Below are positions 1,772 through 26,953 of a DNA stretch of 64,000 nucleotides, one piece after another (position 1 is the first letter of the stretch; every line of letters begins with the position of its first letter). The position numbers and the translations under genes were made by a program. The notes below the pieces were generated by a model, which worked only from the letters and a program-made list of their open reading frames with translations, ran no database searches and was not told the DNA's origin. Origin of the DNA: a virus (Duplodnaviria > Heunggongvirae > Uroviricota > Caudoviricetes); the IMG/VR virus record IMGVR_UViG_3300020152_000001, positions 44,766 through 108,765 of that record, one strand, 5' to 3'.

Positions 1772-1834
1772 CGGCGCATTCCTTGAATGAAACCTTAACG
1801 ACGCTGTGTCTAAGGTGTCGGAAAGGAGTCCACA

Positions 1835-2317: not shown

Positions 2318-2835
2318 AGCTGCTCGATCGCGTACTCGAAGACGCCTACAACGCAAATCCCAGTGTCGGCGTGGCTTGGTATCTGATGACCAGCTACCTC
2401 TACTATCACCACGACACCAGCGTCCTCAGCGACCCCGCGTTCGACAACCTCTGCAAATATCTCGATGAGGACTGGGACGCGATCGAGCACATTCACAAGC
2501 ACCTCATCAATCGAGAGGACTTGAGGGCCGGCACCGGCTTCGCTTTGCAGATGGATGATTTGCCGCTCCGCGTCGTCGCCGGAGCTGCGGCGTTGCTCGA
2601 CCTCGCGCTCGACGCCGACGATCGTGATCCCCGGCCGTTCTCGCCGCCGCGATATTTTGCGGAGATGCTTGTACGTGAGGGCGTCGGCCGCAAACGCAAG
2701 AAGAAATCAGCGAGGAAGACACTCGATGCTGATGGCGGGGAAGCGCTTCCAGATTCGGGGGAAGACCTTCTCAGCGGACCCGAGCAAAGCCTCTCCGCTG
2801 ATGATGAGACTCGGCGCGAACACGATTGCGTTTGA
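2314..2835 (+). CDS. hypothetical protein (173 aa)
   Basis: ATG at 2314 overlaps upstream TGA (ATGA). The ORF-track N-terminal extension from 2197 is rejected. Confidence 0.5.
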   Translation: MKLLDRVLEDAYNANPSVGVAWYLMTSYLYYHHDTSVLSDPAFDNLCKYLDEDWDAIEHIHKHLINREDLRAGTGFALQMDDLPLRVVAGAAALLDLALDADDRDPRPFSPPRYFAEMLVREGVGRKRKKKSARKTLDADGGEALPDSGEDLLSGPEQSLSADDETRREHDCV

Positions 2836-3075
2836 TCCCGGCCGCGTGTCGATCGAATAATCCCAAAAGGACAACGCTGTAAGGCCCCAGCCGCCAAGGC
2901 GAGACATCACGGCTTCATACGGCCGCTGGTGCGTCTTCGGCGCGAGCTGGCCGTCGAGATGGGCGAGGTCGCTGTACATCGGCAGCGCCCGCAACAGCGA
3001 GCGATCGACGAGGAAGTGTCCTCCCCTTTCGATGCAGCCGAAGAAAAGCCAATCGGGTTTGTAGTCGGCGATCAC
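2707..3075 (-). CDS. hypothetical protein (122 aa), last gene of the leftward operon
   Basis: Start ATG overlaps stop of upstream minus-strand gene (ATGA at 3072-3075). The N-terminal 80 aa look protein-like. The 3' third overlaps the convergent + gene 2314..2835. Confidence 0.35.
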   Translation of the reverse strand: MIADYKPDWLFFGCIERGGHFLVDRSLLRALPMYSDLAHLDGQLAPKTHQRPYEAVMSRLGGWGLTALSFWDYSIDTRPGSNAIVFAPSLIISGEALLGSAEKVFPRIWKRFPAISIECLPR

Positions 3076-3413
3076 GGAAGCTCTGTGGGATACAGGAAGT
3101 AGACGGCCTTACCCAACTCCCTTGCGTACTCGATTTCCCGCTTCGTCGACGAGCCTATATAGCCGCCGGGGTTCACTACGACGATAGCGTCCGACATCGC
3201 GATCTTATCGAAGTGCAGACTGTCTAGCGCTTGTTTCTCCGCAGTGCCTTCGTCTCCGTCGCTGGTGATGAAACGCGCACCAACAGGTTCGTCGGCGTGG
3301 CCGAAGCAGCTCAGCGAAATCACGATGCATCCGAGCATGGAATAGTGCATCTGCGCCAACGCAAAGGCGTCGGGGAAACGACTGCTTCCGCAGAGGGTGA
3401 CGACTTTTCTCAT
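3072..3413 (-). CDS. nucleoside 2-deoxyribosyltransferase-like (Rossmann) protein
   Basis: Motifs VTLCGSSRF near the N-terminus and VVVNPGGYIGSSTKREIEYARELGKAVY near the C-terminus resemble the NDT/Rcl family. ATGA coupling to the upstream gene. Confidence 0.45.
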   Translation of the reverse strand: MRKVVTLCGSSRFPDAFALAQMHYSMLGCIVISLSCFGHADEPVGARFITSDGDEGTAEKQALDSLHFDKIAMSDAIVVVNPGGYIGSSTKREIEYARELGKAVYFLYPTELP

Positions 3414-3937: not shown

Positions 3938-4049
3938 TGCAGCGCCATCGCCGCAAGAGTGATCGAGCTGCCGGCAAAGACGACGATGGCGAAGACGCCA
4001 AGGTACATCTGCCGCCGGGCGCGGCGGACTTCAGCGAGCACGTGCGGCT

Positions 4050-5156
4050 TCATTGGAGCCCCTGCTCGCTAATGCGGCGGAGAATCCACTCACGTGCCTT
4101 CAACGCGATAGGTCCTGCGACCTCTTTCCATGTAAGACCGCTGGCCTCGCGTTCGGCTTCGGTCTCTTTTTCGACATCACGGCCGATCCAGCCGAGAAAG
4201 GGCCCGATCTTTTGCACCGTGGCGACGCCGTCCGGCCAAACGGCCTGCAGGCCTTGCTCAAGGCGGGCCTCATGCACGTGGGCGGTCGTGAATGCCTTAG
4301 CGTTTTCGCTGGCCTCTGCCTTCATGCGGGCTGGTTTCGCGGCGCCCTTCTCGCCGTGGGCGGCGCCTTTGACTTTGAAGAGCAGCGACTGCGAATGCAG
4401 GCGCAGGTTGGACACGTCTTCGATGCGGAAGGCGCGGCCCGGCGTCATCGGGATTTCGACGGACTGCGGATAGAAGACTAGGCCTTCCCCGACGCCGTCG
4501 ATACCGAATACGGATTTGATGTAGGGGTCGCTCTGGTCGATCTTCGCGACTTCGTCGTTGATCTCGCGGACGATCTCTTCACCGCGTTCGCGATCGTTGA
4601 AGTCGAGGCGGATCAGACTGCCTTCGTGCCACGGGATCACTTTGACGCGCGGATGGATGCCGTTCTCGTTCGTCAGCCAGCGCTCGATGGACTCGGGATT
4701 GACAATATGTCCGTCTGCGGTCTCGATCGAGAACACGAAGAAGGTCTTCTCGGGTATCTGCGAGACCGAGACCTTCTTCTGGATTCCGGGGCCAGCCCAT
4801 TCGCCGTGAACGACGACGTACTCGTTCGCCAGCGGCCGGAGTGATGACCAATAGTCGTTCGTCTCTTCGACGAACTTCGCGAAGCCGCAGTTATCGTCCT
4901 CCGGTGTGATGTCGTCGGTGCGCTTCTGCGCCACGACTTTGCCGTAGCTGTAGACGCGGACGCCGCCATTGGTGCCGTGAAGTTTGACCTTCGCGCGATA
5001 CCGGACGATTGGCCGGTTCGGGAAATCGAACATGCCGGCGATCTGCTTCCACACGTTCACGAAGCCGAGGATCGACGGGAATTTGTGGTGATGATCGGAG
5101 ACCGGCGGCCCACCCTCTTCCGCTTCTGCGTAAGTTAGACTGACATCAGATGGCAT
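4050..5156 (-). CDS. RNA ligase, Rnl2-like (nucleotidyltransferase motif I KLHGTN)
   Basis: KVKLHGTNGG matches the T4 Rnl2 motif I (KIHGTN). Start moved to the ATG MPSDVSL at 5156. The ORF-track extension to 5327 overlaps the upstream gene and is low complexity. Confidence 0.75.
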   Translation of the reverse strand: MPSDVSLTYAEAEEGGPPVSDHHHKFPSILGFVNVWKQIAGMFDFPNRPIVRYRAKVKLHGTNGGVRVYSYGKVVAQKRTDDITPEDDNCGFAKFVEETNDYWSSLRPLANEYVVVHGEWAGPGIQKKVSVSQIPEKTFFVFSIETADGHIVNPESIERWLTNENGIHPRVKVIPWHEGSLIRLDFNDRERGEEIVREINDEVAKIDQSDPYIKSVFGIDGVGEGLVFYPQSVEIPMTPGRAFRIEDVSNLRLHSQSLLFKVKGAAHGEKGAAKPARMKAEASENAKAFTTAHVHEARLEQGLQAVWPDGVATVQKIGPFLGWIGRDVEKETEAEREASGLTWKEVAGPIALKAREWILRRISEQGLQ

Positions 5157-5841
5157 AGGTAAGCCCTGCTTTCGGCAGATCGCGTGCCTCGGCCACGCCC
5201 ATGTGCTGGCGCAGCTCCGTGATAAATTGGTCGGCGGTCTGATCGAGGATTTCGCCTTCGATCCAACCGCTCTGATCGAAATAGGCGTGCATGACTTCCG
5301 GCCGCATGCCGCGATGCATGACCTCAAGCCACGCGAGAGCGCGGCTCAGCATCCGCCGGTGCGTGTGCTCGCCGAGATAATCGCGCCAATGGACCTTGCG
5401 ACGCGGCTCCACGCCCTCGTCGACGTAGAAGCCCCACCACGCCTGCTTCTGCATGCGCCAGACGGCGGTGACGATGACGCCGTCATCATCGAGTTCGTAG
5501 CGCTTCTTGTCCCAGATGTTCTCTGGCACTACGCGGGCGCGGCCGAGGATGCGATGCGCGTACTCTGGCCGGCGATAGTGGAAGCGAAAGCGCTTCACGA
5601 TGTTCAGAGTCGTTTTGCCGGTCTTCGGGTCGTAGACTTCCTCGAAGTAGTCGGTGAACGGGAACGTGATGAAGCCCCACGGGTGATCGTGGGGATGTCG
5701 GTCTTCGTCCTTCCGCCACATGACATGCAGGCGGAAGCGCCCGATGATGCAACGGGTCATGTACGGCGACTGATCGCCCTTCCCCGTAATCGTGTCGAAG
5801 AACGGGAGCTTGTTCAGCAACTGTGACAAATGCTTCGCCAT
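5146..5841 (-). CDS. hypothetical protein with His-rich motif (RHPHDHPW)
   Basis: 231-aa ORF. The start codon lies inside the recurrent motif (CGTAAGTgagacTGACATGG). Possible metal-binding HxHDH motif. Function unknown. Confidence 0.5.
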   Translation of the reverse strand: MAKHLSQLLNKLPFFDTITGKGDQSPYMTRCIIGRFRLHVMWRKDEDRHPHDHPWGFITFPFTDYFEEVYDPKTGKTTLNIVKRFRFHYRRPEYAHRILGRARVVPENIWDKKRYELDDDGVIVTAVWRMQKQAWWGFYVDEGVEPRRKVHWRDYLGEHTHRRMLSRALAWLEVMHRGMRPEVMHAYFDQSGWIEGEILDQTADQFITELRQHMGVAEARDLPKAGLTYAI

Positions 5842-5852
5842 GTCAGTCTCAC

Positions 5853-6320
5853 TTACGCCCTTAGATACAAAGCGACCTCGGCCTCCCGGCGTCGGATCAG
5901 TCCGTTTGATCGCACCTTCGCTCCCTTCTTCGTCACCCAGATGAAGCGCCGCAGCTGCGTCGGGACTTCAGTCAGACGCCCTTCTCGGATCAGCCTAAAG
6001 ACCACCCAACTCGGCGACGCTCCAGCGTTGAAAGCGAACGACACCAAAGCGCCGTACTGATTGTCGGTGAGGGACGCCAACCGATCGGCTGGCATGCACG
6101 CGGCCAGTCGCGTCTGCGCTTCTCGGAGGTCAAGCCGGAGAAGACGCTCCGCTTCCTCTTCGGTGATGGTCTTTTTGCCGACATCGTCCCCGCTTACGGT
6201 CTCCGTGTGACCGTAACCGATCGAAGGCACACCGGCCTCGCAGCGGTAGGCGACAAGCTCTAGGTTCTCGAAGCTCTTGATGAGATCGATTGCCGCTTGG
6301 TTGAGTTCACGAGTTGCCAT
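5853..6320 (-). CDS. endolysin, GH24 phage lysozyme
   Basis: AIDLIKSFENLELVAYRCEAGVPSIGYGHT is the T4/lambda-R-type lysozyme catalytic motif. Start at ATG MATREL (6320). Confidence 0.8.
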   Translation of the reverse strand: MATRELNQAAIDLIKSFENLELVAYRCEAGVPSIGYGHTETVSGDDVGKKTITEEEAERLLRLDLREAQTRLAACMPADRLASLTDNQYGALVSFAFNAGASPSWVVFRLIREGRLTEVPTQLRRFIWVTKKGAKVRSNGLIRRREAEVALYLRA

Positions 6321-6618
6321 AGGTGTTCTGTTCTCGGTGGTCTCGGTTTTGGTATTCCTCGTCTTCCGCTCGCACCTTCTCAATGAAGTCGAGGATGTCA
6401 GAGGATTTGAAGCGGGCGCAGACTTCGTAGCGGCCGGCAGCTTCTTTGACGTTCAGTATCTCACCATAAGGACCGCAGTTGCCGAGGAAACGCGCTCGCA
6501 ACCCACGGGGGCAAACTTTGCGAGGCAAAACCAGCAACACAAACTCGGCCGCGCGACAGCGAGCTTCGAGGTCTTCGACCTTCATCAGTCGACCTTCCCG
6601 CCGACGTGATGAAACCAT
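6307..6618 (-). CDS. hypothetical protein
   Basis: ORF in operon orientation. Overlaps a + strand ORF of similar size. Confidence 0.3.
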   Translation of the reverse strand: MVSSRRREGRLMKVEDLEARCRAAEFVLLVLPRKVCPRGLRARFLGNCGPYGEILNVKEAAGRYEVCARFKSSDILDFIEKVRAEDEEYQNRDHREQNTYGNS

Positions 6619-7307
6619 GCGCCGTAGCGATTGAGGTCGCTTTCTCGCGTGAACTGAAGCATCGCCGGCACGCGCAGATGCCGGCCGCTGCGATGGATGA
6701 TTTGCAGCTCGATAGGCTGTAGGTCATCTTTCTGAGGTTGAAACCATGGGGGCATCGCCACAAGTCGGCGGTCTCCGCGCTCCATCGCCCTCTTGGCTTC
6801 CTGGAGCCAGGCCTTCGGGGCCCGAAGCTCCGTGATAGCGCCTCTGGGATCACGAAGAAACGAAGGACGCTCTTCGCCGGTAGGCCGGCCTTCGAGCATC
6901 CGCATCATCCTCTTCATGCTGGAGATCGAGAACTTGGACGACTTCGACTCCCAGGCGCTAGTCGCCGTGATCTGCTTGGCCCATAGTTCTTCTCGCATTT
7001 TGTTCATGCGAATGTTGAACTCACGCCCCACCTCTAAGGTCTCGATGTCCAAGCTCACTTGCTTGATGTCGTAGACTCTCTTGACCTCGATGGATTTGGT
7101 CTCGACGGCGGAGACGGGAATTGACGCTCCCGGATACGCAACGCGAGGTGATATGGAAACGAGATCACGACGAAGAAGAGGAACTTCCCGCAGAACTTCC
7201 ACAAGAGAAGAAGAGGCCATGCAATTACGACGACTGCGAAAAAGTCGTCCCTTCTGAATGTGAGACCGCGACCAAGCGCGATATAGCAACCTACGAAAAC
7301 CCAACAC
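6585..7307 (-). CDS. hypothetical protein (start uncertain)
   Basis: 240-aa ORF. Internal Met candidates exist. Overlaps 7055..7375 in another frame. Confidence 0.4.
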   Translation of the reverse strand: MLGFRRLLYRAWSRSHIQKGRLFRSRRNCMASSSLVEVLREVPLLRRDLVSISPRVAYPGASIPVSAVETKSIEVKRVYDIKQVSLDIETLEVGREFNIRMNKMREELWAKQITATSAWESKSSKFSISSMKRMMRMLEGRPTGEERPSFLRDPRGAITELRAPKAWLQEAKRAMERGDRRLVAMPPWFQPQKDDLQPIELQIIHRSGRHLRVPAMLQFTRESDLNRYGAWFHHVGGKVD

Positions 7308-15887: not shown

Positions 15888-16325
15888 TTACTTCCGCTTG
15901 CGAAAAGTATCCAAGCGGATGACGGTACCGTCGTCGATCGGCGGCGGAGGTGGAGGCGGCAGCGCCGGGACCCTGACCTCCTGATAGATGGCGAAGCCCT
16001 TGGTCTTGTCGATAAACGTGGAGATCGCATCTAGCGGGACGTAGCAACGAAACTGCGCCCCGTTAAACCATAGGTCGACGCCAAAGCCGTTAGGCTCCAG
16101 TGTGAGGTTTCGGTATTGGTGTTGGAGGATCAGTACGACTTCGGGCCGTGCGTAGAGATGCCTGGGTAGGACGACGCCGGGGAATTCCGTCCGCACTGTC
16201 ACCTGAAAGGTGTGATCTTTGGTCAAGAGGTCACGACGCTGAGCCGCGTATCGCAGCAGCGTTGCTATCGAAAGACGACGCGCGTTATCGAGCGCGTTGT
16301 CATAGGGAATCATCTTCTCGGACAC
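15888..16325 (-). CDS. sspB: SspB-like ClpXP adaptor (stringent starvation protein B family)
   Basis: IPYD...HTFQVTVRTEFPGVVLP...VVLILQHQYRNLTLEPNGFGVDLWFNG...VPLDAISTFID aligns to alphaproteobacterial SspB. A basic C-terminal tail (IRLDTFRKRK) looks like a ClpX-binding motif. GTG start. Confidence 0.6.
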   Translation of the reverse strand: MSEKMIPYDNALDNARRLSIATLLRYAAQRRDLLTKDHTFQVTVRTEFPGVVLPRHLYARPEVVLILQHQYRNLTLEPNGFGVDLWFNGAQFRCYVPLDAISTFIDKTKGFAIYQEVRVPALPPPPPPPIDDGTVIRLDTFRKRK

Positions 16326-16696
16326 TACTTTTCGAAGCTCATGAATTGATCGGCGGGTATGATCACGTCGCAGATCGTTCGCTGGTTTTGAGGCTTGAAG
16401 ACGATGTCGATCACTGTCGCCGAACCGCCCAAGCCTCTCCTCACAAACTCACCCAACGCATGTTTCGTCGGACCTCTGCAAACCTCTGACCAGACTTCAG
16501 CGAAGGACTCATCGGTCGCATCCTTCGGTACGACCTTCTGCTTGCCGTCCTCAGAGGCGATGGCGAACCCCGTTGTCAGCATTGCAGCCGTCGCCACCAG
16601 CATATCCTCTCGTCTGATGCCGGCCGTTGTCCGCGCTTCAGCGGAAACACGACGATAGAGCACCAGCCCTTTTTGGAGGTGCGGCAGATAGCGCAT
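16325..16696 (-). CDS. hypothetical protein
   Basis: ATG start. ATGA coupling to the sspB-like gene. Confidence 0.45.
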   Translation of the reverse strand: MRYLPHLQKGLVLYRRVSAEARTTAGIRREDMLVATAAMLTTGFAIASEDGKQKVVPKDATDESFAEVWSEVCRGPTKHALGEFVRRGLGGSATVIDIVFKPQNQRTICDVIIPADQFMSFEK

Positions 16697-16729: not shown

Positions 16730-19700
16730 TCAATCCTCGTCGTCTGAAAGCGGTCGGGGCACATGGATGTCCAGCTTCCGGCGCTCTCGGGCGTGCGTTC
16801 TGATTTCCTCCAAAGTCGGGACCTCGTAGCAGCGCACCTGCTTGCCTTGGATGCGGCGGTTGACGGTCTCGCCGCCGTGGTCAGCCGAGAGGTAGCGCTG
16901 CACGAGTTTCTTGAGGAACTTGCGGTTGCCAATCTTATGTCGAGCGGCGCCGCCAATGGTCTTCAGGTGATTGTCGTAATGACCTTCGAGCACGGCGGCG
17001 CGGATGAACACCCGCTGCCCCAACGGACTATCACGCGTCTCCGCAAATTCTCCGTCTAGATAGATGCCTTCGAGAGAGGGATTGTCCTTAGGCTCGCAGC
17101 CACCGTCTTCGATCATATTGATGAAGAACTTGTCCCACGGCTCCAGCGACTCCATCGCCTGACTGACGAGCTGATCGGTCATCGGCGGCAGGCGAAGAAT
17201 GTCCCACCCTTCTTTGAATCCGCCGTCGACGATCGGGTCCCAGTTCATCAGCTGGTGGATCATGGCTTCACGGCCGCCGTTGTGCATCTGCTTGTCGATC
17301 GCGGCGAAGAACTTGATGTCACCACGGCGAGCGTCACCGCATTCGATGACGAAGTAGCGGCGTTCATCTTCGAGGCCGGCGGGGACGACCCAAGACTCGT
17401 TAGAGATGAACCCCAGCCGGCAGTAGTTCGAAGTCGGAACGGCATCGACGCCTTTCTGTTCGAACATCATCTCGTCGGAGGTGATGAGGTCCTTCAGAGC
17501 GTTGCCCGCTTGGTGGTCACCAGCCCAGAACGCTTCCTCGCAGACCATGAGAATGATACCCCGCTGGTGGCCGTTGAAGTTGCCAGTGATATGATGCTTC
17601 TGAGCGACCTTGATCGCGTAGGGCCCAAGGCTCTTGCGGACCCAATCGAGTAGCTTCGACTTGCCCGTGCCCTTGAGACCTCGAATAGCGATCGACGAGC
17701 CCAGCTTCTCACCAGGGAATTGGAAGAGCTGAGCCAGCCAAGTCATCAGCCAGCGGTAGTGGAGATCGTTGCCTTGGCAGACGTTGTCGAGCACGTGATT
17801 GTGCAGCAGACCCCAGTCGCCGTGTTTGCCCTTGTAGGGAAAACCGCGCCAGAGATTGTACGTGCCGTCAGGGAGTTTGCTGACATCCGGCTCGAAAGCG
17901 ATGCCGTTTTCGTATGTGCGACGCTCCGGCCATTCCATCCAGAGCTTGGTCGCACGCTCTTGTTTGAAGCCCTTGTCCGCCGGCACCAGGAGCTTTTTGT
18001 TCGACTCCATCGTCTTCCAGCCATCGACTCCTTGAAACTTCGGCGACTGGATCAAAGTTTGTGGCACACGAAGGATTCGAGCATCGCTACCGAGTAGGAC
18101 GATAGCGAATTTCTCGTTCATCGCCTCCATGTGCTTGCGGATGTACGGGTCGTCGTAGACGGCGTCTGAAACATCCTCGTCTTCGCCGCCTTCCTCATCG
18201 TCGGAGGTCTGCGTCTTAGCGGCGGCGATGATCGCGGCTTCGCCTTCGGTGCGCTCGACTTCGATCTCGATTAGGTAGGGATTCAGGTCTTCTTCGCTGA
18301 GGTTGTTCTCGCTAACGACGAGATCGAGAAAGTCAGCTCGATCGAGATCAGCGCAGCTCGCGTGCATGCACTTCGCGACGAAGCCATCAGTGAAGTCGGC
18401 GTCGCCAGCAGAGACGACGAAGAAGCCTTTGTCTTCCGGGTCGTCGGCGTTGGTGTGCGCGGCATCGTTCGGGCACTTGAAGTGTCCACCGGCTCCGTTG
18501 CGGGCGCCTCGATCTTCTCCGTAGTCTCGGAAGAACGACTCCGCGTCGAAGGCCTCAGCCTTCTCCGCGAGGAAGCGCATGATCCAGGGATTGCGGAGTT
18601 CTTTGCCGCCGCCGCTGGGACCATCCAAAGCCTCCGAAACGCGCTCGAATACGCTCTTCTCGTCTTCGGGATCAGGAATGTTGTCGAGGCTCAGCGGCTC
18701 GCCGTCGATGACGCGAACTTCGTACCCCTTCCCGTCCTGCGGGTGACGGGGCGTATACATCAGACGGCTGGGGTCGGTGCAGCTTCGATCGTAAGCAGCG
18801 CCGATGAGTTTAGACACGCCAGCGTAGCGGCGCTTCCAAAGTTCGACGCCTTTGCGAGGATTGGTTGCGACTTCTGCGAAGACAAAAGGCCTGTCCAACA
18901 CAAAGAGCACGCGGAACTTCGGCATCGGCGCGTGGTCGACGGTGATCATGACACCGTCCTTCGTGTGCGTCGTGCCTCGGACCTTGGCGTTCTCCAACAC
19001 CCAAGGCCGATAGAGCTTTTCTTTCTTCAGGTAGCCGAACACTTCTTCGGCCGTGGGCTCGCGATCGGCGCCGATGAATTTTAGCACCGCATCCTTACGC
19101 ACGTCGGTGCTGGGCTTCAGGTGGCTCCAGGTCGTCCACACGATCGCGAACAGACCCAACTCCCTGATACGTGCAACGACGGCTTCCATGTCGTCGCCGG
19201 TATCGAGATCGAGCATTAGCAGGTAGTTCGCCCGCATCGCCTGGGCTTTGCGCTCGCCGGCAATAACCTCGCCTTGGAGAATGCACTTCCCATCCTTGCC
19301 GCCTTGCTCGTGCTCTCCAAGCATGACAACGAGGTCTCGCACGGTGCGGGTCATATTTCGCCACGTCCCCGGCGGCGTCTTAACACCCTTGAGGCTGGCT
19401 CCGACCGTCACCTGGAGATCGAGAATTTGGCTGTTTTGGCGGGTTTCTGACGGGTTCGAACCCGGCACCAGGACTTCGAACCCATAGGCTTCGCCGCAGC
19501 CGCCGATGCGCTCCCAGCCGTTTTGGCCGGCGATCGGCACGAAGTCATCAAGCCGCGCTTGCGGATAAACGCCGCGAACGCAGGCCTTCAGGGCGTCGAC
19601 GCGTTCGGCGTCGCTGCCGTGAACGGGGCCATCCAGCAGCCAGATATTGAAGACACGAGGACCTTGACCGAGGATGAGGCTGGGTTCTGGGAACGAAGTC

Positions 19701-19930
19701 GACGCCTCAGCACAGTCGAATCCCCCGAAGCCAACGATGTTGTCGGACATCGTCGCCATAGAGACCCAAGCGTCGAGGCTCTCTTCGAGCAGCGTCGAGA
19801 TTTCTTCGGGAGTTTGCGCCGTGCGTTCATTGTCATCGCACGAAAACAGAAGCGCGTCGTCGGCGTCTTCTGGTAGACAGTCGAAGAATACGGCGTTGAG
19901 GAATTCTTTGTAGCCGAACTCGGCGGACAT
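16730..19930 (-). CDS. primase-helicase (AEP prim-pol N-terminal domain plus D5/P4-type SF3 helicase)
   Basis: 1066 aa. P-loop IRGLKGTGKSKLLDW with downstream D5-like motifs. The N-terminal region carries acidic catalytic clusters (LMLDLDTGDD). Confidence 0.8.
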   Translation of the reverse strand: MSAEFGYKEFLNAVFFDCLPEDADDALLFSCDDNERTAQTPEEISTLLEESLDAWVSMATMSDNIVGFGGFDCAEASTSFPEPSLILGQGPRVFNIWLLDGPVHGSDAERVDALKACVRGVYPQARLDDFVPIAGQNGWERIGGCGEAYGFEVLVPGSNPSETRQNSQILDLQVTVGASLKGVKTPPGTWRNMTRTVRDLVVMLGEHEQGGKDGKCILQGEVIAGERKAQAMRANYLLMLDLDTGDDMEAVVARIRELGLFAIVWTTWSHLKPSTDVRKDAVLKFIGADREPTAEEVFGYLKKEKLYRPWVLENAKVRGTTHTKDGVMITVDHAPMPKFRVLFVLDRPFVFAEVATNPRKGVELWKRRYAGVSKLIGAAYDRSCTDPSRLMYTPRHPQDGKGYEVRVIDGEPLSLDNIPDPEDEKSVFERVSEALDGPSGGGKELRNPWIMRFLAEKAEAFDAESFFRDYGEDRGARNGAGGHFKCPNDAAHTNADDPEDKGFFVVSAGDADFTDGFVAKCMHASCADLDRADFLDLVVSENNLSEEDLNPYLIEIEVERTEGEAAIIAAAKTQTSDDEEGGEDEDVSDAVYDDPYIRKHMEAMNEKFAIVLLGSDARILRVPQTLIQSPKFQGVDGWKTMESNKKLLVPADKGFKQERATKLWMEWPERRTYENGIAFEPDVSKLPDGTYNLWRGFPYKGKHGDWGLLHNHVLDNVCQGNDLHYRWLMTWLAQLFQFPGEKLGSSIAIRGLKGTGKSKLLDWVRKSLGPYAIKVAQKHHITGNFNGHQRGIILMVCEEAFWAGDHQAGNALKDLITSDEMMFEQKGVDAVPTSNYCRLGFISNESWVVPAGLEDERRYFVIECGDARRGDIKFFAAIDKQMHNGGREAMIHQLMNWDPIVDGGFKEGWDILRLPPMTDQLVSQAMESLEPWDKFFINMIEDGGCEPKDNPSLEGIYLDGEFAETRDSPLGQRVFIRAAVLEGHYDNHLKTIGGAARHKIGNRKFLKKLVQRYLSADHGGETVNRRIQGKQVRCYEVPTLEEIRTHARERRKLDIHVPRPLSDDED

Positions 19931-20166
19931 CAGTCGATCTTTTGGATTCGGACTTTCACGGGCCCGTCCTCGATCACGTTGTAGCCGGTCAGCTTGTCGC
20001 GGAGATGCGGGAGCACGTAGGCCATACGTGCCGCGCCCGCTTCGACAGCCGACCGCGCCGTAACTGTGTGCGTGGTCATGGGGGCGTCGCGATAGAACAG
20101 TTGAAGGGTGAAGCGTTTTTGCCCGTCTTCTTCTTTCACGTCTTTCATGCCGCTTGCCTCTTCCAC
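19930..20166 (-). CDS. hypothetical small protein
   Basis: ATGA coupling with the primase gene. Confidence 0.4.
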   Translation of the reverse strand: MEEASGMKDVKEEDGQKRFTLQLFYRDAPMTTHTVTARSAVEAGAARMAYVLPHLRDKLTGYNVIEDGPVKVRIQKID

Positions 20167-20489
20167 TTCTCCGCCATGAGATAATGCACGCGATCGTAGC
20201 CGACCCAGAAGCGTCGATGCGTTGTTTGATCCTCGACCTCGACGGGGCCGAAGTCGTTCTCTTGTGCGGTGATTTCTGCGATGACGAGGTTCTCGCCGTA
20301 GTCCCGCACTAAGGCCTTGCGGCCTTTGAGGTCCCCGAACTTAGCGTCTCGCAGCTGGACGGCATAGGTTTTGTGGGCGACGAGAACCGTGAGCACAACC
20401 GGGTGTGTGAGTCCCCCTCGGTCAAGCCGATAGACGACCTTCCCTTTTAGGGTTTGGCCTTTGTGGCCGAACTCCACGGTTGCGTTAAT
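20145..20489 (-). CDS. hypothetical protein (start moved)
   Basis: The track start at 20549 is the TTG of a TTGACA box. GTG at 20489 (VINATVEFGHKG) is preceded by gaaagagaaa. Confidence 0.4.
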   Translation of the reverse strand: MNATVEFGHKGQTLKGKVVYRLDRGGLTHPVVLTVLVAHKTYAVQLRDAKFGDLKGRKALVRDYGENLVIAEITAQENDFGPVEVEDQTTHRRFWVGYDRVHYLMAEKWKRQAA

Positions 20490-20574
20490 CACGTCAGTTT
20501 CTCTTTCAGCGGGGTCGCGGACAATAACCGCGACCCCTCCGGATGTCAACTAAACTTACGGCCGGGGAGAAGGG

Positions 20575-20859
20575 TTAGGACTTCTTGGTCACGGCCGTGG
20601 GGACGAAGCCCGCGATGAAGCCAAGGGCGGCGCCCAGCTGGTAGGTCTCGTAGAAACCGAAGAGCCCAGCGAGCTGCCCCAAGGTCGAGGGGAAGAGCAG
20701 GCCCACCAGAAAGCCAATGACGGCGCCGAAGATCGTCTTCACGAGGACGAAGATCGCGAGATAGCCGACAACGGTGCCGAAGACCGCAGCGACCATCGCC
20801 ACGAAGCCGGCGACGGCGGCGGCGATGATTCCAAAAAGAGCGACGATGGCTTTGATCAC
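20575..20859 (-). CDS. polytopic glycine-zipper membrane protein (94 aa)
   Basis: Almost entirely hydrophobic (AIVALFGIIAAAVAGFVAMVAAVFGTVVGYL...). ATGA coupling with the HslV-like gene. Confidence 0.5.
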   Translation of the reverse strand: MIKAIVALFGIIAAAVAGFVAMVAAVFGTVVGYLAIFVLVKTIFGAVIGFLVGLLFPSTLGQLAGLFGFYETYQLGAALGFIAGFVPTAVTKKS

Positions 20860-21335
20860 AGTTTTTCCTTCTCAAGCTGCACGACTCTAATAGAACCGCC
20901 GGTGCGGAGGTCGTGCTCCTTCGCGGCTTCGACGGCCAGTTCTGCGCCGGCGCCGGCGTGCATGGCACCCAACGCAAACTTCGCACCCGAGCCAAGCGCG
21001 TAATACGGCGCGTCGATGTATTCGGCTTCGAAGTCGGGGCCGGCGAAGAGGCCGATGCGGCTGGTTTGCGGATTGACGACGATCGCCTCTGCGAGGTCTT
21101 CGCCGTCGCCGAGTTCGCGGCGCGGATGCGAGTGCGGAGAGAAGTCGTCTCTGACCCAACGCACAAACGCCTCGATGTCGGAGATGCAACCGACGACGCC
21201 AACGAGATAGCGCTTCTCGTCGTTCTCTCCGGCGATCACGTCGAAGACTTTCTGCTTCTGGCCGATGACCGTCGTCTGCGTGGTGACGAGGCTGTCGCCG
21301 GCTAAGACGCCGTCTCTGTAGGCGATGGTACTCAA
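20856..21335 (-). CDS. HslV / proteasome-beta-like Ntn-hydrolase
   Basis: STIAYRDGVLAGDSLVTT aligns to the HslV N-terminus (TTIVSVRRNGHVVIAGDGQ). C-terminal ALGSGAKFALGA resembles GSGGxxA. TTG start overlaps the upstream TGA. Confidence 0.5.
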   Translation of the reverse strand: MSTIAYRDGVLAGDSLVTTQTTVIGQKQKVFDVIAGENDEKRYLVGVVGCISDIEAFVRWVRDDFSPHSHPRRELGDGEDLAEAIVVNPQTSRIGLFAGPDFEAEYIDAPYYALGSGAKFALGAMHAGAGAELAVEAAKEHDLRTGGSIRVVQLEKEKL

Positions 21336-21895
21336 GCGCTGACTCCAGCGTTGATGCCAAGCAAGTCGTCGAACACGTAGAAGACGTGCTCCGGCGGCAT
21401 GTTCTCGTCGACCTTGAGATACCAGTCGAAACCTTCGTCGATGTTCGGGCGCTCGAAATCGGCCCTCATCTTCTCGATGACGGCGTCGGGGATTTCTTTA
21501 CCAGGACGAGACTTCAGGCGGGTGGCGAGAACGTCGTCCTCCACCGACACCCAGATGCAGCCTACGTTGTAGAGCCGCCGGCTCACGCGGTTCGCGATCG
21601 AGGCCCGCTTCTTCGCCGTGAGGTTCGTCTGGTCCCAGATGATGACGCCATGGCCGAAGGCCATCGCCAACGCCATTTGCTCGTTGCAGTGCCGCCGGCC
21701 GGCGTCGGCGAATTGCGAGAAGGCTTCGGTGTAGGTCTTGCCGATCTTCGCGGCCTCGGCTTCGATGTAGTCGTCGGAGCTGATGACCGTGCAGGTGCTT
21801 CCCATCTCTCGAACGTAATTCGCCATGGCGTCGCGTAGCGTCGACTTGCCCGACGCCGGCAAGCCGACGAGAATGATGAGCGTGCGCTTCCTCAC
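21332..21895 (-). CDS. polynucleotide 5'-kinase-like P-loop kinase
   Basis: LIILVGLPASGKSTL...SSDDY closely parallels the T4 Pnk kinase N-terminus (GCPGSGKST...NRDDYR). GTG start overlaps the ligase stop (GTGA). Confidence 0.65.
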   Translation of the reverse strand: MRKRTLIILVGLPASGKSTLRDAMANYVREMGSTCTVISSDDYIEAEAAKIGKTYTEAFSQFADAGRRHCNEQMALAMAFGHGVIIWDQTNLTAKKRASIANRVSRRLYNVGCIWVSVEDDVLATRLKSRPGKEIPDAVIEKMRADFERPNIDEGFDWYLKVDENMPPEHVFYVFDDLLGINAGVSA

Positions 21896-23133
21896 GCGGC
21901 CTCCAGGAATTCTATGAACGACGGCGGGTTCAGGAGCAGCGACTTCGCGTGCTCCCAGTTCTTCGATGTCTGCGCGTGCTTACGCAGGTAATTTAGAATT
22001 GCGTCAGCGGTCGTGACTTTGCCGTCGAAGCACTTGAAAACCAGATGCCGGAGCTGCTGCCAGCGAGGATCAGAAGCAGCGTTCGCTTCCGATGCGATGG
22101 CGAATTCTTTGCGGCCGATCTCCTGAGCACGCAGAGTCTCAACATGGACCTTGGCGTTCAGGTGCTGAATCTCAGTGGCCAAACTCGCGATGTATTCTTC
22201 AACGCGAGCGCGATCTTCCGCAGCAAGAGCCGGCAGCAAGTCGTCGATCTTCTGGTCGAGGAAAAGGGCGGCGACGTTGTGCTCGCGGCCGATCAATTCC
22301 TTGGTCTTGTGCAGCTGCACATACCAGGAGGTCTTGAACTTCAGCATGTGGCCGTCGCGAAGCTGGAGTACGTAGCCCTCCACGCCCTCTGCTTCGTGCA
22401 AGGCCTCGCGGAAGAGTCGTTCGACGGGGACCGTTCCGACTACGGGAATGTCGTAGGAGCGCCCCCAGTTTTCGAGCTGGTCGCGGGGGATGTAGTGGCC
22501 GGTGTAATTCCACCGCGCCGCCAAGAGCACAAGCTGGTCCTCGGGATAGTCGAGGACGATGCGTTGGCGGCGGCTGCACCATTCGAAGATTGGCGTCACG
22601 CCAATGCGGGCGGCGTTTGTCGCAAATTCAACGTAGTTCGGACGCGACGCCACGAACTCTTCGACCGGCAGCGCGACATCAGTGACACCCATCTTCGTGC
22701 CCCAACGGATTCCGCCGGCCACGGGAATCGGCGTGATCATGGAGCCGTCGAGCTTGTCGGCGATCACATGGTCTTCTAACTGCACGAGTTCCAGGCCCGA
22801 GAGACCTTGGTCTTGCCTCTCGCCCTCGTTGAAGAACTTGTGAAAGCGTCGGGCGATGATCTCGCCCGTCGACGTGCGGAAGATGATCCCACGGCACTCT
22901 CGGAGAATCGCGGCGCCGTGATCGTAGTCATAGCGCCGGCCTTGGAATTCGGCATCGTTCGCGAGGACGACCTCGTTGAACACCGGCGGAAACGTCTCCG
23001 GCGTCTGGTAGACGTAATTGATGACGGTGTAGTCGCCTTCCTTCTCGACGACGACAAACTCGTCGCGCCCCTTAATGTGTGGGAGCACGTCGTTGATGCT
23101 TGTGATCGAGGGAAATGGGTAGCCGATCGTCAT
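21892..23133 (-). CDS. RNA ligase, Rnl1-like (motif I KLDGSM)
   Basis: VIADKLDGSM matches the T4 Rnl1 KEDGSL motif I. Start at ATG MTIGYPF (23133). The track extension to 23370 is Arg-rich low complexity. Confidence 0.75.
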   Translation of the reverse strand: MTIGYPFPSITSINDVLPHIKGRDEFVVVEKEGDYTVINYVYQTPETFPPVFNEVVLANDAEFQGRRYDYDHGAAILRECRGIIFRTSTGEIIARRFHKFFNEGERQDQGLSGLELVQLEDHVIADKLDGSMITPIPVAGGIRWGTKMGVTDVALPVEEFVASRPNYVEFATNAARIGVTPIFEWCSRRQRIVLDYPEDQLVLLAARWNYTGHYIPRDQLENWGRSYDIPVVGTVPVERLFREALHEAEGVEGYVLQLRDGHMLKFKTSWYVQLHKTKELIGREHNVAALFLDQKIDDLLPALAAEDRARVEEYIASLATEIQHLNAKVHVETLRAQEIGRKEFAIASEANAASDPRWQQLRHLVFKCFDGKVTTADAILNYLRKHAQTSKNWEHAKSLLLNPPSFIEFLEAA

Positions 23134-23336
23134 CAGTAAAACTGCTGGTAGAAGGAACAGATGGCGTTGTGATGCACGCCGTAGCGATTGATCACGGCGT
23201 CGAAGTCCGCCTTGACGAACGCCGGGGGTTCGCCATTGACGGCTCGAAGCTGGTTCTCGGCGACCATGCCGGAGACTTCCGCGTTCACGCACGCGGCCAT
23301 GCCCACGATATAGGCGGCGGACTGTTCTGGTGTCAT
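23133..23336 (-). CDS. hypothetical small protein (67 aa)
   Basis: Start at MTPEQSAAY. The upstream part of the track ORF is low complexity. Confidence 0.3.
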   Translation of the reverse strand: MTPEQSAAYIVGMAACVNAEVSGMVAENQLRAVNGEPPAFVKADFDAVINRYGVHHNAICSFYQQFY

Positions 23337-23432
23337 GCCAGCGGCACCAAGGCGCCGTTGCACGCGGCAACGATGACGACGATGACGGCTGCGAGAAGCC
23401 CGATGCCGGCGATGATGTTCGTCCGCATCAGA
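23337..23432 (-). CDS. putative 31-aa single-TM peptide
   Basis: MRTNIIAGIGLLAAVIVVIVAACNGALVPLA. Its start overlaps the stop of the phosphatase gene. Below the ORF-track size cutoff. Confidence 0.25.
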
Positions 23433-23949
23433 AGTCTCCGGGTTCGACTTGGCAGCACTTGAGCCCCCGGCGCCGCCACATGGCGACGACGCGGTCGCGA
23501 TCGTCGAAAACGATCTGCGGGTCCCAGCCATCGGCCAGAAGCTCGTCGAGCAGTTCTTCTTTAATGATGTCGTCGGCGCGGTAGTCTTTCGGCGCGCGAA
23601 TGTAGAGCGCATCGTAAGGCACGCCGGTTCGGGGCTCGCCGTCGAAGGCTTCCCATGTGGCCTCGTCGAGCCATTGCTTCGTCAGGTCGACAAACTCGCC
23701 GTCACGTCCCGAGCACAGGACCGTAGCCAGACCCACGGCGCGGGTGGCCAGGATCATGTTGAGGATGGGAGCGATCGGGGCGTCGGAGACACAGCCCTTG
23801 TGGAAGGCGAGGTAGTTCTTCGGCTTGACGGCGATGAACGGGCGACGATGGGAGAGATCGGCGATGGTGCCATCGATGTCGAAGATCGCGCACTTCCGGC
23901 GTGGGAGTGCGTTCACGTCCGACTGTGTAATGGTGCCAAAATCTACCAA
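23428..23949 (-). CDS. HAD-family phosphatase (Pnk 3'-phosphatase-like)
   Basis: AIFDIDGTIADLSHR is the HAD motif I DxDGT (compare T4 Pnk VIFDVDGTLA). Start moved to TTG at 23949 behind gaggggag, because the track start is the TTG inside a TTGACA box. Confidence 0.6.
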   Translation of the reverse strand: MVDFGTITQSDVNALPRRKCAIFDIDGTIADLSHRRPFIAVKPKNYLAFHKGCVSDAPIAPILNMILATRAVGLATVLCSGRDGEFVDLTKQWLDEATWEAFDGEPRTGVPYDALYIRAPKDYRADDIIKEELLDELLADGWDPQIVFDDRDRVVAMWRRRGLKCCQVEPGDF

Positions 23950-24014
23950 TGTGCTCCCCTCGTTAGTGTTCCTGTCGATCGTAAGCCATACTGACGCCCT
24001 TGTCAATCAAAATC

Positions 24015-24644
24015 TCACAGCTGCGAGACCAGGGCGTCCACGGCCGCCGAGGGCTCGATGTAGAGTTCCGTCGATTGCAGCCTCGCGTGGCCGGCGATGT
24101 TCTGCACGTCACGCAGGCTGACGCCCTTACTTTCCTGGGCCAGACGAGCGGCCCTGGTGATGAAGGTTCGGCGCCCAGAGTGCGAACTCGCGCCTTCGAG
24201 ACCGAGCGTGGAATATCGACGCTTGAACCACCACTGCACGCGGTTTGGCGTCAGCCGAGGACCAGCGACGCCGTAGATGACGGCGTCCTGCCGCCCTCGC
24301 GCCGGAGACACGGCGTAGAGATCGCGCAGAGCGGTTTCGAGCATTGGGTGGAGAGGCACGCGGCGTTCGCGTCCCTTCTTGGCGATGTCGCCCGGCACCC
24401 AGATTGATTTGGAAAAGGTGATCTTCCCGGATTCGTCGTCGACGGGGATCAGCTGGCCGATGTTGCCTTCGGGATCGAGAACGTCGTCCCAGTCCAGCCC
24501 CGCGATTTCGGCGGAGCGCAAAGCGGCCTTGAACGAAAGCAGGACCATCGCCCGGTCGCGCTCCGGAGTCTTGCTCTCGGAGACGTAAGCCAGGAATTTA
24601 CCCAGCTGGTTGTCGTTCAGAATTGCCGCCTTCTTCGTTGCCAC
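24015..24644 (-). CDS. minimal tyrosine recombinase (catalytic domain only, 209 aa)
   Basis: C-terminal HSGRRTFITRA...GHARLQSTELYI supplies the R..H-x-x-R...Y catalytic residues. No N-terminal arm-binding domain. Confidence 0.6.
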   Translation of the reverse strand: MATKKAAILNDNQLGKFLAYVSESKTPERDRAMVLLSFKAALRSAEIAGLDWDDVLDPEGNIGQLIPVDDESGKITFSKSIWVPGDIAKKGRERRVPLHPMLETALRDLYAVSPARGRQDAVIYGVAGPRLTPNRVQWWFKRRYSTLGLEGASSHSGRRTFITRAARLAQESKGVSLRDVQNIAGHARLQSTELYIEPSAAVDALVSQL

Positions 24645-24662
24645 TTCGCCTTCCCTTCCTTC

Positions 24663-25070
24663 TCAATGTATCCAGTCGTGCTTCCATTCCTCTTCGCCGA
24701 CTTCGAGAGCGTCGGCCTTGTCTTTCAACTTGCGCCACCACACGAAGCTCTCGTGATAGCGGCGTTCGTTCTCGGCGGCGTCGCCGACTTTGTTGGCCAT
24801 GAGGGCCCAGAAGATGTCGTTCTGGAGATCAGCCAGCAAAACGTGGGCCTCCAGCGCTTCTTCCTCGTCCTCGGCGTAGGCCGACGCGTAGTCCACTCGG
24901 TTCAAGAGCACTGAGGGATCAGGCTCTATGAACTCTTCCATGTCCGCGCCTTCTTCCGGCGCGTAGATCACGCTGATCACGACCGACCATTTCTCCGCGT
25001 TGGACATATCTTGCCCCCAACGTGGGATGGTTTCGTTGACGATCGCTGCCGCTAGGTCTTCAGCTTTCAC
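24663..25070 (-). CDS. hypothetical acidic protein
   Basis: 135 aa, Asp/Glu rich. Confidence 0.45.
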   Translation of the reverse strand: MKAEDLAAAIVNETIPRWGQDMSNAEKWSVVISVIYAPEEGADMEEFIEPDPSVLLNRVDYASAYAEDEEEALEAHVLLADLQNDIFWALMANKVGDAAENERRYHESFVWWRKLKDKADALEVGEEEWKHDWIH

Positions 25071-25275
25071 GGGCTCGCTCTGCGCTTTCCGCTTGCGCGT
25101 ATGGGAGATGAAGGCGGGCCTTGCCGAGTAGCGCTTCGACTTTGCCGTCGTCTCTTCCCACTTGGCGCAGCGCGTCAGCTACAGCTTCGAGCCCTAGTTG
25201 CTTCGCGACGGAGTCCACCTGAGAGCCGAAGCTCCGGCGAAGGTCGTGAAGCTCGCGTTCGACCAGCGAGGTCAA
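25060..25275 (-). CDS. hypothetical small protein
   Basis: 71-aa ORF. Confidence 0.3.
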   Translation of the reverse strand: MTSLVERELHDLRRSFGSQVDSVAKQLGLEAVADALRQVGRDDGKVEALLGKARLHLPYAQAESAERARES

Positions 25276-25638
25276 TCAGGCAACCGCGTAGCGAGTGCCG
25301 TCGACTTTCACCGCAAGCACGGTGTCGAGATCGACGGTGCGGAATGCCTTCCTCTCCGTGTCCCAGACAGCCATGTGATTGGGGTTGTTGGCCTTGCGAG
25401 TAGCCGTCCGAGCTTTCGCAGCGTCGCTGGCAGCGTCGCCGGCCACATGCTTCTTCGCAGCGGCAGGCTGGAACCGCATCACCCGAACGTTGCCGTCTTG
25501 TTTGATGAACTCCACAGCGGCGAAGCGGCCTTGGGCCGAGAGCATCAACCGGCGAACGTTTTCGCGACGGCTTTGGATGGCGACATCGGTGTTAAGCAAT
25601 GCTTTCTCCTCTTTTCTCTTTTCCAGTTTCAGTGTCAT
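25276..25638 (-). CDS. hypothetical protein
   Basis: ATG immediately follows a TTGACA-N17-TTACAG promoter-like element. Confidence 0.45.
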   Translation of the reverse strand: MTLKLEKRKEEKALLNTDVAIQSRRENVRRLMLSAQGRFAAVEFIKQDGNVRVMRFQPAAAKKHVAGDAASDAAKARTATRKANNPNHMAVWDTERKAFRTVDLDTVLAVKVDGTRYAVA

Positions 25639-25680
25639 ACTGTAAGTTAGGCTGACGCCGATGTCAATCAGGAAAGAGGG

Positions 25681-25923
25681 TTAAGAGGTCGGTCGCGTAT
25701 CGACGAAGGTATGGCCGTGCCGGCGCTCAACTTGGGCTTCGATACCCAGCGCACCCAACGCCGGTAAGAATTCAGGATGACGAAGAGCATGGCCTACCCG
25801 AAGGTCCGACAACGCGGCCTCATCGCCGATCTCTCGCGCGGTGAAGCCGTTCTCGGCGCCGTGCTCATCACACAGCCGCTTCAGCGCACGCGCAATGCGG
25901 GCTGCGTCTTCAGCCCGAGACAT
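25681..25923 (-). CDS. hypothetical protein
   Basis: 80-aa ORF. Confidence 0.4.
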   Translation of the reverse strand: MSRAEDAARIARALKRLCDEHGAENGFTAREIGDEAALSDLRVGHALRHPEFLPALGALGIEAQVERRHGHTFVDTRPTS

Positions 25924-26344
25924 CGGCGGCTTTCATCTCTGGGATCGAACGCAGCAAGAGTTCGCGTGCGAGAATGCCCTGCACGTCGCGGACATCGACG
26001 ATGCCAGAATTCCGAGAGTTCGCGGCGGCGATCGACGATAGGTGCTGCATCGTCTTCTCTATGCCGAGGTGGCGGGCGACGAGGCGGATCGTCGCCGGAA
26101 GGCTGTGCGTGTAGGTGTCGAGCATGCCCGCCCGCATCTTCTCAAATTGGCCGGGTATGTATGGATTCTCTCGGGAATACTCGTAGACCCAGTCGGCCTT
26201 GGGGGCGTTGGGTAGGAGATTCTTGCGAGAAAAGCCGTCGAAATGGATGGCAATGGCTTCGTCGATCCAGAACGCCGGCTCGTTGGGTTGTAGGCGATAG
26301 AGCGCGTGCTGCACTTCAGCAACTGAGGCGATTTTGTCGGTCAA
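25910..26344 (-). CDS. hypothetical protein
   Basis: 144-aa ORF. Confidence 0.45.
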   Translation of the reverse strand: MTDKIASVAEVQHALYRLQPNEPAFWIDEAIAIHFDGFSRKNLLPNAPKADWVYEYSRENPYIPGQFEKMRAGMLDTYTHSLPATIRLVARHLGIEKTMQHLSSIAAANSRNSGIVDVRDVQGILARELLLRSIPEMKAADVSG

Positions 26345-26468
26345 TCAAACCTCCCCTAAGGCCGCACGGATGGCGGCGTTGATGTCAAGCACGGCCATAT
26401 CGTAGCCCTGCGCCCAGGAGGTGGCTTCGGAATTACTGAGACCGTCAGGAGCCTCGCCGGGGTCGGCG

Positions 26469-26702
26469 TCAGTCTCCATGTAGTGCTTCAGCACTTCCAA
26501 GACTTTGTCCCGGACGTTCTTCGCCGCCGGGCTCTCTGAGATTGGCGTCACCTTGTCGCTCACCGTTTTCTCCCTCCCTCTTCTCGATAACACGAACCCC
26601 GTGTTCAGGGCAGTCCATGTGGTAGTGCGCCTGCATGCGGCCGTCTCGTCCGTAGACGATCATGGCCCGGTTCATCGGCACATCACGACAGATGCAAGTC
26701 AT
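26469..26702 (-). CDS. hypothetical Cys/His-rich small protein
   Basis: MTCICRDVPMNRAMIVYGRDGRMQAHYHMDCPEH. The 3' part overlaps the next ORF (26345..26593). Confidence 0.3.
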   Translation of the reverse strand: MTCICRDVPMNRAMIVYGRDGRMQAHYHMDCPEHGVRVIEKREGENGERQGDANLREPGGEERPGQSLGSAEALHGD

Positions 26703-26953
26703 GTGCGGCGCGGCCTCTTGATGCGATGGTCCTCAAGGTACGCGCGCATGTCTTCCTCTGACGTGACCTCAGACTTCATGTCGCTGCCGATCTCGATTTC
26801 GAAGCCAGGGCAGCGATCACGCACGCGCTCGACTCCTTCCTCGAATGTCGTCGTCCGAGTGCCGAGGCACCGGCAAACGTAGAGCGTGCCTTCGTCGCGA
26901 TAGATCGCGACAGCCGGACGCCCCCGGTAGCGAAATAGGCCATGAGGCTCCAT
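26699..26953 (-). CDS. hypothetical protein, first gene of leftward operon
   Basis: Start moved to ATG MEPHGL (26953). The track start lies inside a TGATAGTG promoter element. Confidence 0.4.
   Translation of the reverse strand: MEPHGLFRYRGRPAVAIYRDEGTLYVCRCLGTRTTTFEEGVERVRDRCPGFEIEIGSDMKSEVTSEEDMRAYLEDHRIKRPRRT

Follow-up and report, generated by a model that had tools for sequence, protein, structure and literature searches.

The 64,000-nucleotide stretch of DNA analysed here (the window) spans positions 44,766 to 108,765 of the tailed-phage record IMGVR_UViG_3300020152_000001 (Caudoviricetes) and carries on its minus strand, at 20856-21335, an open reading frame (ORF) of 159 amino acids (aa) with a TTG-Ser-Thr start, just as a first-pass annotation of this DNA had read it. 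Judged by its sequence, the encoded protein (MSTIAYRDGVLAGDS...; ...YALGSGAKFALGA) is a divergent, Ser1-type member of PPH, a described, widespread and routinely annotated phage family of proteasome homologues. We consider it probable that this protein is a stand-alone, ATPase-independent N-terminal-nucleophile peptidase with Ser1 as its nucleophile, and that the ORF for a 94-aa membrane protein that overlaps its stop codon is independent of it. The features of these two ORFs are as follows (nt, nucleotides).

20856-21335, minus strand: PPH-family proteasome homologue, 159 aa, TTG start; the mature N-terminus is the predicted Ser1 left after fMet removal
21330-21332, minus strand: codon 2, Ser, predicted as the N-terminal nucleophile and corresponding to Thr1 in HslV and in proteasome beta (hhalign places M-S-T-I against M-T-T-I; Thr in 155 and Ser in 10 of 165 family sequences)
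21294-21296, minus strand: codon 14, Asp, equivalent to HslV Asp17 (aligned to GD17G; 165/165)
21249-21251, minus strand: codon 29, Lys, equivalent to HslV Lys33 (hhalign; 164/165)
21189-21191, minus strand: codon 49, Gly, oxyanion-hole position equivalent to HslV Gly45 and proteasome Gly47 (hhalign; 165/165)
20985-20993, minus strand: codons 115-117, Gly-Ser-Gly, the GSG motif with HslV Ser124 and proteasome Ser129 (aligned to HslV IGSGG)
21343-21346, minus strand: GGAG, a Shine-Dalgarno-like motif 7 nt upstream of the PPH TTG, within the end of the kinase gene (from reading the sequence)
20575-20859, minus strand: very hydrophobic 94-aa orphan protein with repeated GxxxG, its GTG start lying over the PPH stop (GTGA)
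20866-20870, minus strand: AAGGA, a Shine-Dalgarno-like motif 6 nt upstream of the membrane-ORF GTG (from reading the sequence)

PHROG 1040, "peptidase HslV family", matched the 159-aa protein across its full length (E = 1.6e-34). This match, together with the predicted fold and the catalytic residues, bears out the proposal of the first-pass annotation that the protein is HslV/proteasome-beta-like. Among curated models, the Pfam Proteasome model gave 21.1 bits, just under its gathering threshold of 22.4, the sole NCBIfam match was to archaeal proteasome beta (22.9 bits against a cut-off of 224), and the NCBIfam HslV model did not match. The best PDB match of the sequence profile was BPH, the beta-proteobacteria proteasome homologue (E = 5.7e-10), followed by proteasome beta and HslV. 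A tblastn search retrieved 50 phage records at 34-38% identity, from phages of Caulobacter, Brevundimonas, Rhizobium, Aeromonas, Erythrobacter and Mesorhizobium, and the homologues, RefSeq entries included, are labelled "peptidase HslV family", "putative Ntn hydrolase domain protein", "nucleophile aminohydrolase" or "proteasome subunit alpha/beta". A profile search yielded 916 clusters (50% identity) at E <= 1e-30, nearly all about 140-160 aa long and aligned from residue 1. A pattern-limited scan of IMG/VR found 252 relatives (best identity 39%), bacterial genomes held 15, mostly in Alphaproteobacteria, and a metagenome scan with the single protein returned three at 31-34% identity, while megablast of 14 kb against phage records gave no match. 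The view that HslV homologues are not a standard annotation in phages was mistaken, as shown by the RefSeq coding sequences named "peptidase HslV family" and by the description of PPH in 2021; since the family is known and widely annotated in phages, the premise of novelty attached to the gene fails.

Fuchs et al. 2021 described PPH as proteins of about 140 residues that have no propeptide, no C-terminal S12/H5 elements and no H2, the last a trait otherwise found only in RPC, which carries a C-terminal extension. In their analysis, the PPH cluster radiates from BPH and comprises sequences of Caudovirales phages and of prophage regions in Proteobacteria, with WP_042125023.1 as a representative, and the proteasome-type nucleophile is given as Thr1/Ser1. 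The window protein resembles these in being a single compact domain with an M-[TS]-T-I-A-Y-R-D-G start and no H2, in keeping Thr1/Ser1-Asp17-Lys33-Gly47, and in belonging to tailed phages or prophages of Proteobacteria with no ATPase partner. Its alignment begins at residue 1 and ends about 10 residues or less from the C-terminus, leaving no propeptide or C-terminal extension, and its phage setting is apparent from the primase, Rnl1 and PNKP phosphatase genes present in the window. Because the features given by Fuchs et al. (length, loss of H2, catalytic set and phage origin) are matched, we assign the protein to PPH; BPH as the best PDB match of its profile is what would be expected of a PPH. 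It departs from a typical member in its 159 aa, its minority Ser1, its TTG start, an identity of at most 42% to any member found, and its flanks, which are an RNA-repair kinase gene and the orphan membrane ORF. The first-pass annotation had considered 159 aa to be short; family lengths range from 138 to 267 aa with a median of 148, which places the window protein slightly above typical, and it has a short insertion near residues 34-43 relative to the family.

An AlphaFold2 model built from 22 homologues was of high confidence (predicted local distance difference test [pLDDT], 91.5; predicted template modelling score [pTM], 0.86). Foldseek matched this model to HslV, proteasome beta subunits and BPH, all at E ~1e-8, and 38 predicted viral structures matched it at E <= 1e-3. 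In contrast with the H1/H2 pair of HslV and proteasome beta, the model has one predicted helix (residues 51-62), which a loop (63-82) links to the next strand; the H2 segment of HslV was unmatched in hhalign, and across the family the stretch between the strands is 30 residues long at the median. For the active site, the E. coli HslV reference sequence used in hhalign was checked against PDB 5ji3, and residue conservation was counted over 165 PPH family sequences. In the GSG motif, G115 is found in all 165, position 116 is Ser in 145 and Thr in 10, and G117 is found in 164. Both of the points on which the first-pass annotation had staked its identification were upheld, in that the proteasome-beta fold is predicted at high confidence by AlphaFold2 and Foldseek and the Ser/Thr-Asp-Lys residues are in place and vary hardly at all among the 165 sequences. 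These results support the identification of the protein as a predicted HslV/proteasome-beta-like N-terminal-nucleophile hydrolase.

An fMet that precedes Ser is a good substrate for methionine aminopeptidase, and its removal means that Ser1 would become a free N-terminal nucleophile. The start M-S-T-I-A-Y-R-D-G is a recurrent minority variant, present in 10 of the 165 sequences, and this recurrence, taken with the processing of fMet-Ser, implies that the TTG-Ser-Thr start is not a defect. The same evidence bears on the idea that the ORF was mis-called or is the relic of a gene no longer active, in which the TTG start and the Ser would signal decay. The non-ATG start, a nucleophile that is Ser and not Thr, and the Pfam Proteasome score just below threshold would fit such a relic, but the third-position GC content (GC3) of the ORF is 0.78, a strong bias like that of real genes in this window of 60.6% GC, the GGAG motif stands 7 nt upstream of the TTG, the predicted fold is full-length and of high confidence with all catalytic positions intact, and the Ser variant recurs within the family. 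This explanation is already largely refuted, and we give it almost no credence. In addition, independent gene calling on the 132,745-bp source contig (ENA ERZ27252484 k141_12613) predicted both the PPH and the 94-aa ORF, and the TTG of the former shares bases with the stop codon of the upstream kinase gene (TTGA). A precedent for a Ser nucleophile is Bacillus subtilis CodW, which is described, with citation of Kang et al. 2001, as an HslV-like N-terminal serine protease; unlike the window protein, CodW has its essential Ser in an N-terminal extension rather than at the Thr1-aligned position, and it partners the CodX ATPase.

In the mechanism that we favour, PPH would be transcribed in a leftward operon running from a HAD phosphatase gene through Rnl1, the kinase, PPH, the membrane ORF and the primase, onward to an SspB-like gene. 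The TTG would be read as fMet, and removal of this Met before the small Ser would expose Ser1, to go by the specificity of methionine aminopeptidase. The amino and hydroxyl groups of Ser1, with Asp14, Lys29, Gly49 and Ser116, would then make up a proteasome-type active site, and residue conservation suggests that it could cleave peptide bonds in the manner of N-terminal-nucleophile hydrolases. The analogy of BPH and HslV makes it probable that the protein forms rings and that its action on peptides or unfolded proteins needs no ATP. Several points weigh against this reading. Connectase has a proteasome-like fold in which Thr1 acts as a ligase, not a protease. The PPH and 94-aa ORFs are tightly overlapped and co-transcribed, and since no PPH relative more than 42% identical was present in the collections searched, conservation of the pair is judged on distant relatives only. 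The peptidase activity, oligomeric state and substrate are what we infer, and a search of the literature for biochemistry on any PPH member found none, turning up only the bioinformatic description of 2021. The family is very widespread, its 50%-identity clusters numbering in the hundreds and its catalytic residues being strictly conserved, and any well-behaved member would be worth biochemistry.

No HslU-like ATPase was found in the operon or elsewhere in the window, and at 76 distinct PPH loci the neighbouring genes included neither HslU nor a recurring AAA+ unfoldase. The lack of an HslU partner is normal for the PPH family. The only AAA protein found was the following.

2-709, plus strand: BCS1-like AAA ATPase (Pfam AAA, E = 1.8e-16, with AAA_lid_BCS1; PHROG 7485, a phage family without assigned function, E = 2.8e-66)

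This ORF is truncated by the window edge, and the first-pass annotation was correct in placing it there as the sole AAA ATPase, with no HslU-like ATPase adjacent to the peptidase gene. As a candidate partner for PPH it was rejected, being on the opposite strand and 20 kb off, with no AAA family recurring beside PPH elsewhere.

HslV is the peptidase of the ATP-dependent HslUV protease, a dodecamer of two stacked hexameric rings, and is usually encoded beside the AAA+ unfoldase HslU. The window protein shares with HslV (ClpQ) its active-site positions and a nucleophile freed by fMet removal alone. Because no hslU gene is nearby, H2 is missing and the curated models are not passed (Pfam sub-threshold, no NCBIfam HslV match), it is not HslV proper; unlike HslV, which is about 175 aa long with H1-H4, it also has Ser rather than Thr at position 1. 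With BPH (PDB 5ovs, 5ovt, 5ovu), it shares a stand-alone character and no known ATPase partner, whereas BPH is about 185-200 aa, has both H1 and H2 and is chromosomal in bacteria. Ring assembly is a known feature of BPH and a putative one of PPH.

An absent phage ATPase partner would also be consistent with PPH hijacking or titrating host HslU, either as part of a hybrid protease whose specificity would be new or by acting as a decoy to block HslUV of the host. The likely hosts, to judge from those of the homologues, are Proteobacteria, which commonly carry HslUV. However, the catalytic residues, which a pure decoy would not need, are invariant in the family, helix H2 is missing, and the profile is nearer to BPH, for which no ATPase partner is known, than to HslV. 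A decoy is therefore disfavoured by the strict conservation of catalytic residues and the missing H2, and we regard a role that works through host HslU as unlikely.

Two observations concern PPH copy number. A tblastn match at 5680-5814 of the window (E = 0.002) was rejected as a second PPH; it lies inside an unrelated 231-aa ORF without the N-terminal nucleophile motif and is attributable to chance. In the Caulobacter Bertelyvirus jumbo phages (MZ574429-MZ574433, OP620777/8), three separate PPH-like matches per genome were observed, which raises the possibility of hetero-oligomeric, proteasome-like rings of phage origin.

Returning to the 94-aa ORF, its product has a grand average of hydropathy (GRAVY) of 1.64 and three hydrophobic 19-aa windows, and the GC3 of the ORF is 0.85. 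GxxxG motifs are found at G45-G49-G53, G61-G65 and G76-G80-G84, and a single-sequence AlphaFold2 model has two long helices, 2-55 and 59-91, at pLDDT 78. No Pfam model matched the protein at E <= 0.1, save a sub-threshold DUF1576 (14.3 bits against a cut-off of 25), and no Gly-zipper Pfam model, PHROG or NCBIfam family did so. The earlier label of glycine-zipper membrane protein thus holds for the hydrophobicity and the GxxxG repeats and fails for any match to a curated Gly-zipper model, the resemblance to glycine zippers being compositional only. Homologues were sought by tblastn in phage records, the fetched PPH loci and the window, and by a word-index search of 5.8 billion proteins, and neither gave anything significant.

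The two ORFs overlap by 4 nt, as had been claimed, although the coupling had been read as ATGA and the GTG start makes it GTGA. Throughout the window, neighbouring genes on one strand often overlap by 1 or 4 nt, and three such junctions follow one another at the locus (ligase/kinase, kinase/PPH and PPH/membrane ORF). Given this frequency, the coupling of PPH to the membrane ORF is not distinctive and is in itself no sign of a functional pair. A scan of 19800-26800 for promoter and terminator signals gave none above background. At 20511-20538, within the 82 nt that separate the membrane ORF from the next gene (start 20492, ENA gene call), the transcribed strand contains a perfect GC-rich stem of 10 bp that encloses a loop of 7 nt (GGGGUCGCGG...CCGCGACCCC), and no U-tract follows it. 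The 96-nt region around this stem folds only modestly better than shuffled sequences (z = -1.85), and the stem may be an RNA stability or processing element.

To determine how often such a pair occurs, 105 PPH loci (the window and 104 others) from annotated phages, Logan/ENA contigs, IMG/VR, JGI metagenomes and GTDB genomes were scanned for an ORF that abuts PPH on the same strand, is 35-200 aa long and has two or more hydrophobic windows. Among the 104 others, such an ORF was found at locus L075, where a 54-aa ORF with two transmembrane segments overlaps the PPH stop, and, as a dubious ORF, at L103. The L075 protein is unrelated in sequence to the 94-aa protein (tblastn). The co-conservation that the first-pass annotation had looked to was therefore not seen, with any small hydrophobic neighbour present at one or two of 104 loci and none of them similar. 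In Erythrobacter phage vB_EliS-L02, the nearest cultured relative, the PPH gene (MTTIAYRSGVLA...) overlaps directly into that for a 1057-aa primase (ORF 3941-7114 of locus L001), with no membrane ORF between the two; this primase is homologous to the 1066-aa primase of the window, which is encoded three genes downstream of PPH.

These comparisons bear on the proposal that PPH and the 94-aa protein form a functional module, either a membrane-tethered protease or a peptidase-dependent pore or toxin, whose stoichiometry is set by the coupling. The GTGA overlap within one operon would be consistent with such a module, as would the arrangement at L075, and the membrane ORF is a real gene by its GC3, its Shine-Dalgarno motif and its independent gene call. 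However, 102-103 of the 104 other PPH loci lack the pair, as does the syntenic Erythrobacter phage, the protein at L075 has no sequence relation to the 94-aa protein, which is without homologues, similar overlaps occur at many junctions in the window, and the PPH model has no extra domain or amphipathic tail suited to membrane docking. With the pair not co-conserved and the 94-aa protein lacking homologues, the membrane-associated protease and the pore/toxin-plus-protease module put forward in the first-pass annotation are without comparative support, and we consider a module of either kind distinctly unlikely. We conclude instead that the 94-aa ORF probably encodes a separate, lineage-specific small membrane protein, and that its overlap with PPH reflects the tight packing of phage genes rather than a conserved module. 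The window PPH is accordingly one more divergent Ser1 member of a large described family, and the supposed system of protease and membrane protein is dropped as a candidate.

The neighbourhoods of PPH elsewhere were varied. Among 139 neighbour proteins at the 76 loci, terminase was found at least 9 times, the head-tail adaptor Ad1 7 times and portal proteins as four families of 3-4 each, the remainder including exonucleases, replication genes and many unknowns. This heterogeneity implies that PPH behaves as a free-standing accessory gene inserted at different sites in each phage. That terminase, portal and Ad1 are the commonest neighbour families could nonetheless be taken to suggest that PPH is not a degradative protease and acts as a sequence-specific processing enzyme, a connectase-like transpeptidase, or a virion or head-maturation factor. 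We hold this to be improbable, given that the window PPH lies in a replication/RNA-repair operon far from structural genes and that the neighbours are too heterogeneous for a fixed structural role. The head-maturation role in particular was rejected, the packaging/head context being absent at the window locus and inconsistent among loci. At some IMG/VR loci (for example L015, L023, L047 and L053) PPH lies between the large terminase and portal genes, and at others (such as L046, L049, L057, L069 and L074) it is directly upstream of Ad1. The packaging/head-module placement in many smaller phages and prophages is moron-like, in contrast with the replication operon of the window.

The window PPH gene is part of a long, tightly packed leftward operon of early/replication type, the other members of which are listed here in transcription order.

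24015-24644, minus strand: integrase-family ORF, 209 aa, a tyrosine recombinase (Pfam Phage_integrase, E = 4.5e-20; PHROG 216)
23428-24006, minus strand: HAD PNKP-type phosphatase (HAD_PNKP)
21892-23133, minus strand: Rnl1 RNA ligase (ENA gene call)
21332-21895, minus strand: P-loop kinase, AAA_33 or polynucleotide-kinase-like, 187 aa (Pfam AAA_33, E = 4.8e-20; PHROG 2071 and 505)
between 19930 and 20549, minus strand: two small ORFs, between the membrane ORF and the primase
16730-19930, minus strand: primase, D5-like, 1066 aa (PHROG 1156, DNA primase; DUF5906)
16325-16696, minus strand: 123-aa ORF, between the primase and the SspB-like gene
15888-16325, minus strand: SspB-like protein (Pfam SspB)

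The kinase upstream and the primase downstream are given as context only. The product of the SspB-like gene, about 4.5 kb downstream of PPH, scores 59.5 bits against Pfam SspB (cut-off 27; E = 5.3e-16), and its best PDB matches are SspB structures from Alphaproteobacteria, 2nys and 2qas/2qaz. The protein contains a poly-proline linker and ends in a C-terminal tail, GTVIRLDTFRKR, that can be aligned with GSVVSLDAFRKK in Agrobacterium SspB, which we take to be the ClpX-binding tail. No homologue was found by tblastn in 50,697 phage records, and a phage-encoded SspB homologue is more unusual than PPH in this operon. The gene points to an alphaproteobacterial host, and its sequence makes it possible that a ClpXP adaptor of this kind manipulates host ClpXP. 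The presence of such an adaptor in the PPH operon suggests that interference of the phage with host proteolysis may not be confined to a single point. A more speculative extension is that the Ser1 PPH has a lineage-specific partner, which could be the 94-aa protein, giving a membrane-anchored, ATP-independent, proteasome-like protease or a protease-gated pore, or the SspB-like adaptor, as part of a programme that rewires host proteolysis; we judge this very unlikely.

Other features of the operon and of its Erythrobacter counterpart were also noted. The RNA-repair set directly upstream of PPH (21332-24006) has PNKP split into separate kinase and phosphatase genes around the Rnl1 ligase gene, in contrast with vB_EliS-L02, which has an RtcB ligase after the primase. 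The integrase-family ORF at 24015-24644 is unusual for an integrase in its size and in its place, within an early operon and adjoining RNA-repair genes. In vB_EliS-L02, positions 1-3400, upstream of PPH, contain no annotated coding sequence, and the six-frame ORFs there have repeated motifs such as GFEPT; this suggests a tRNA gene array, in which case the order would be tRNA array, PPH, primase, RtcB.

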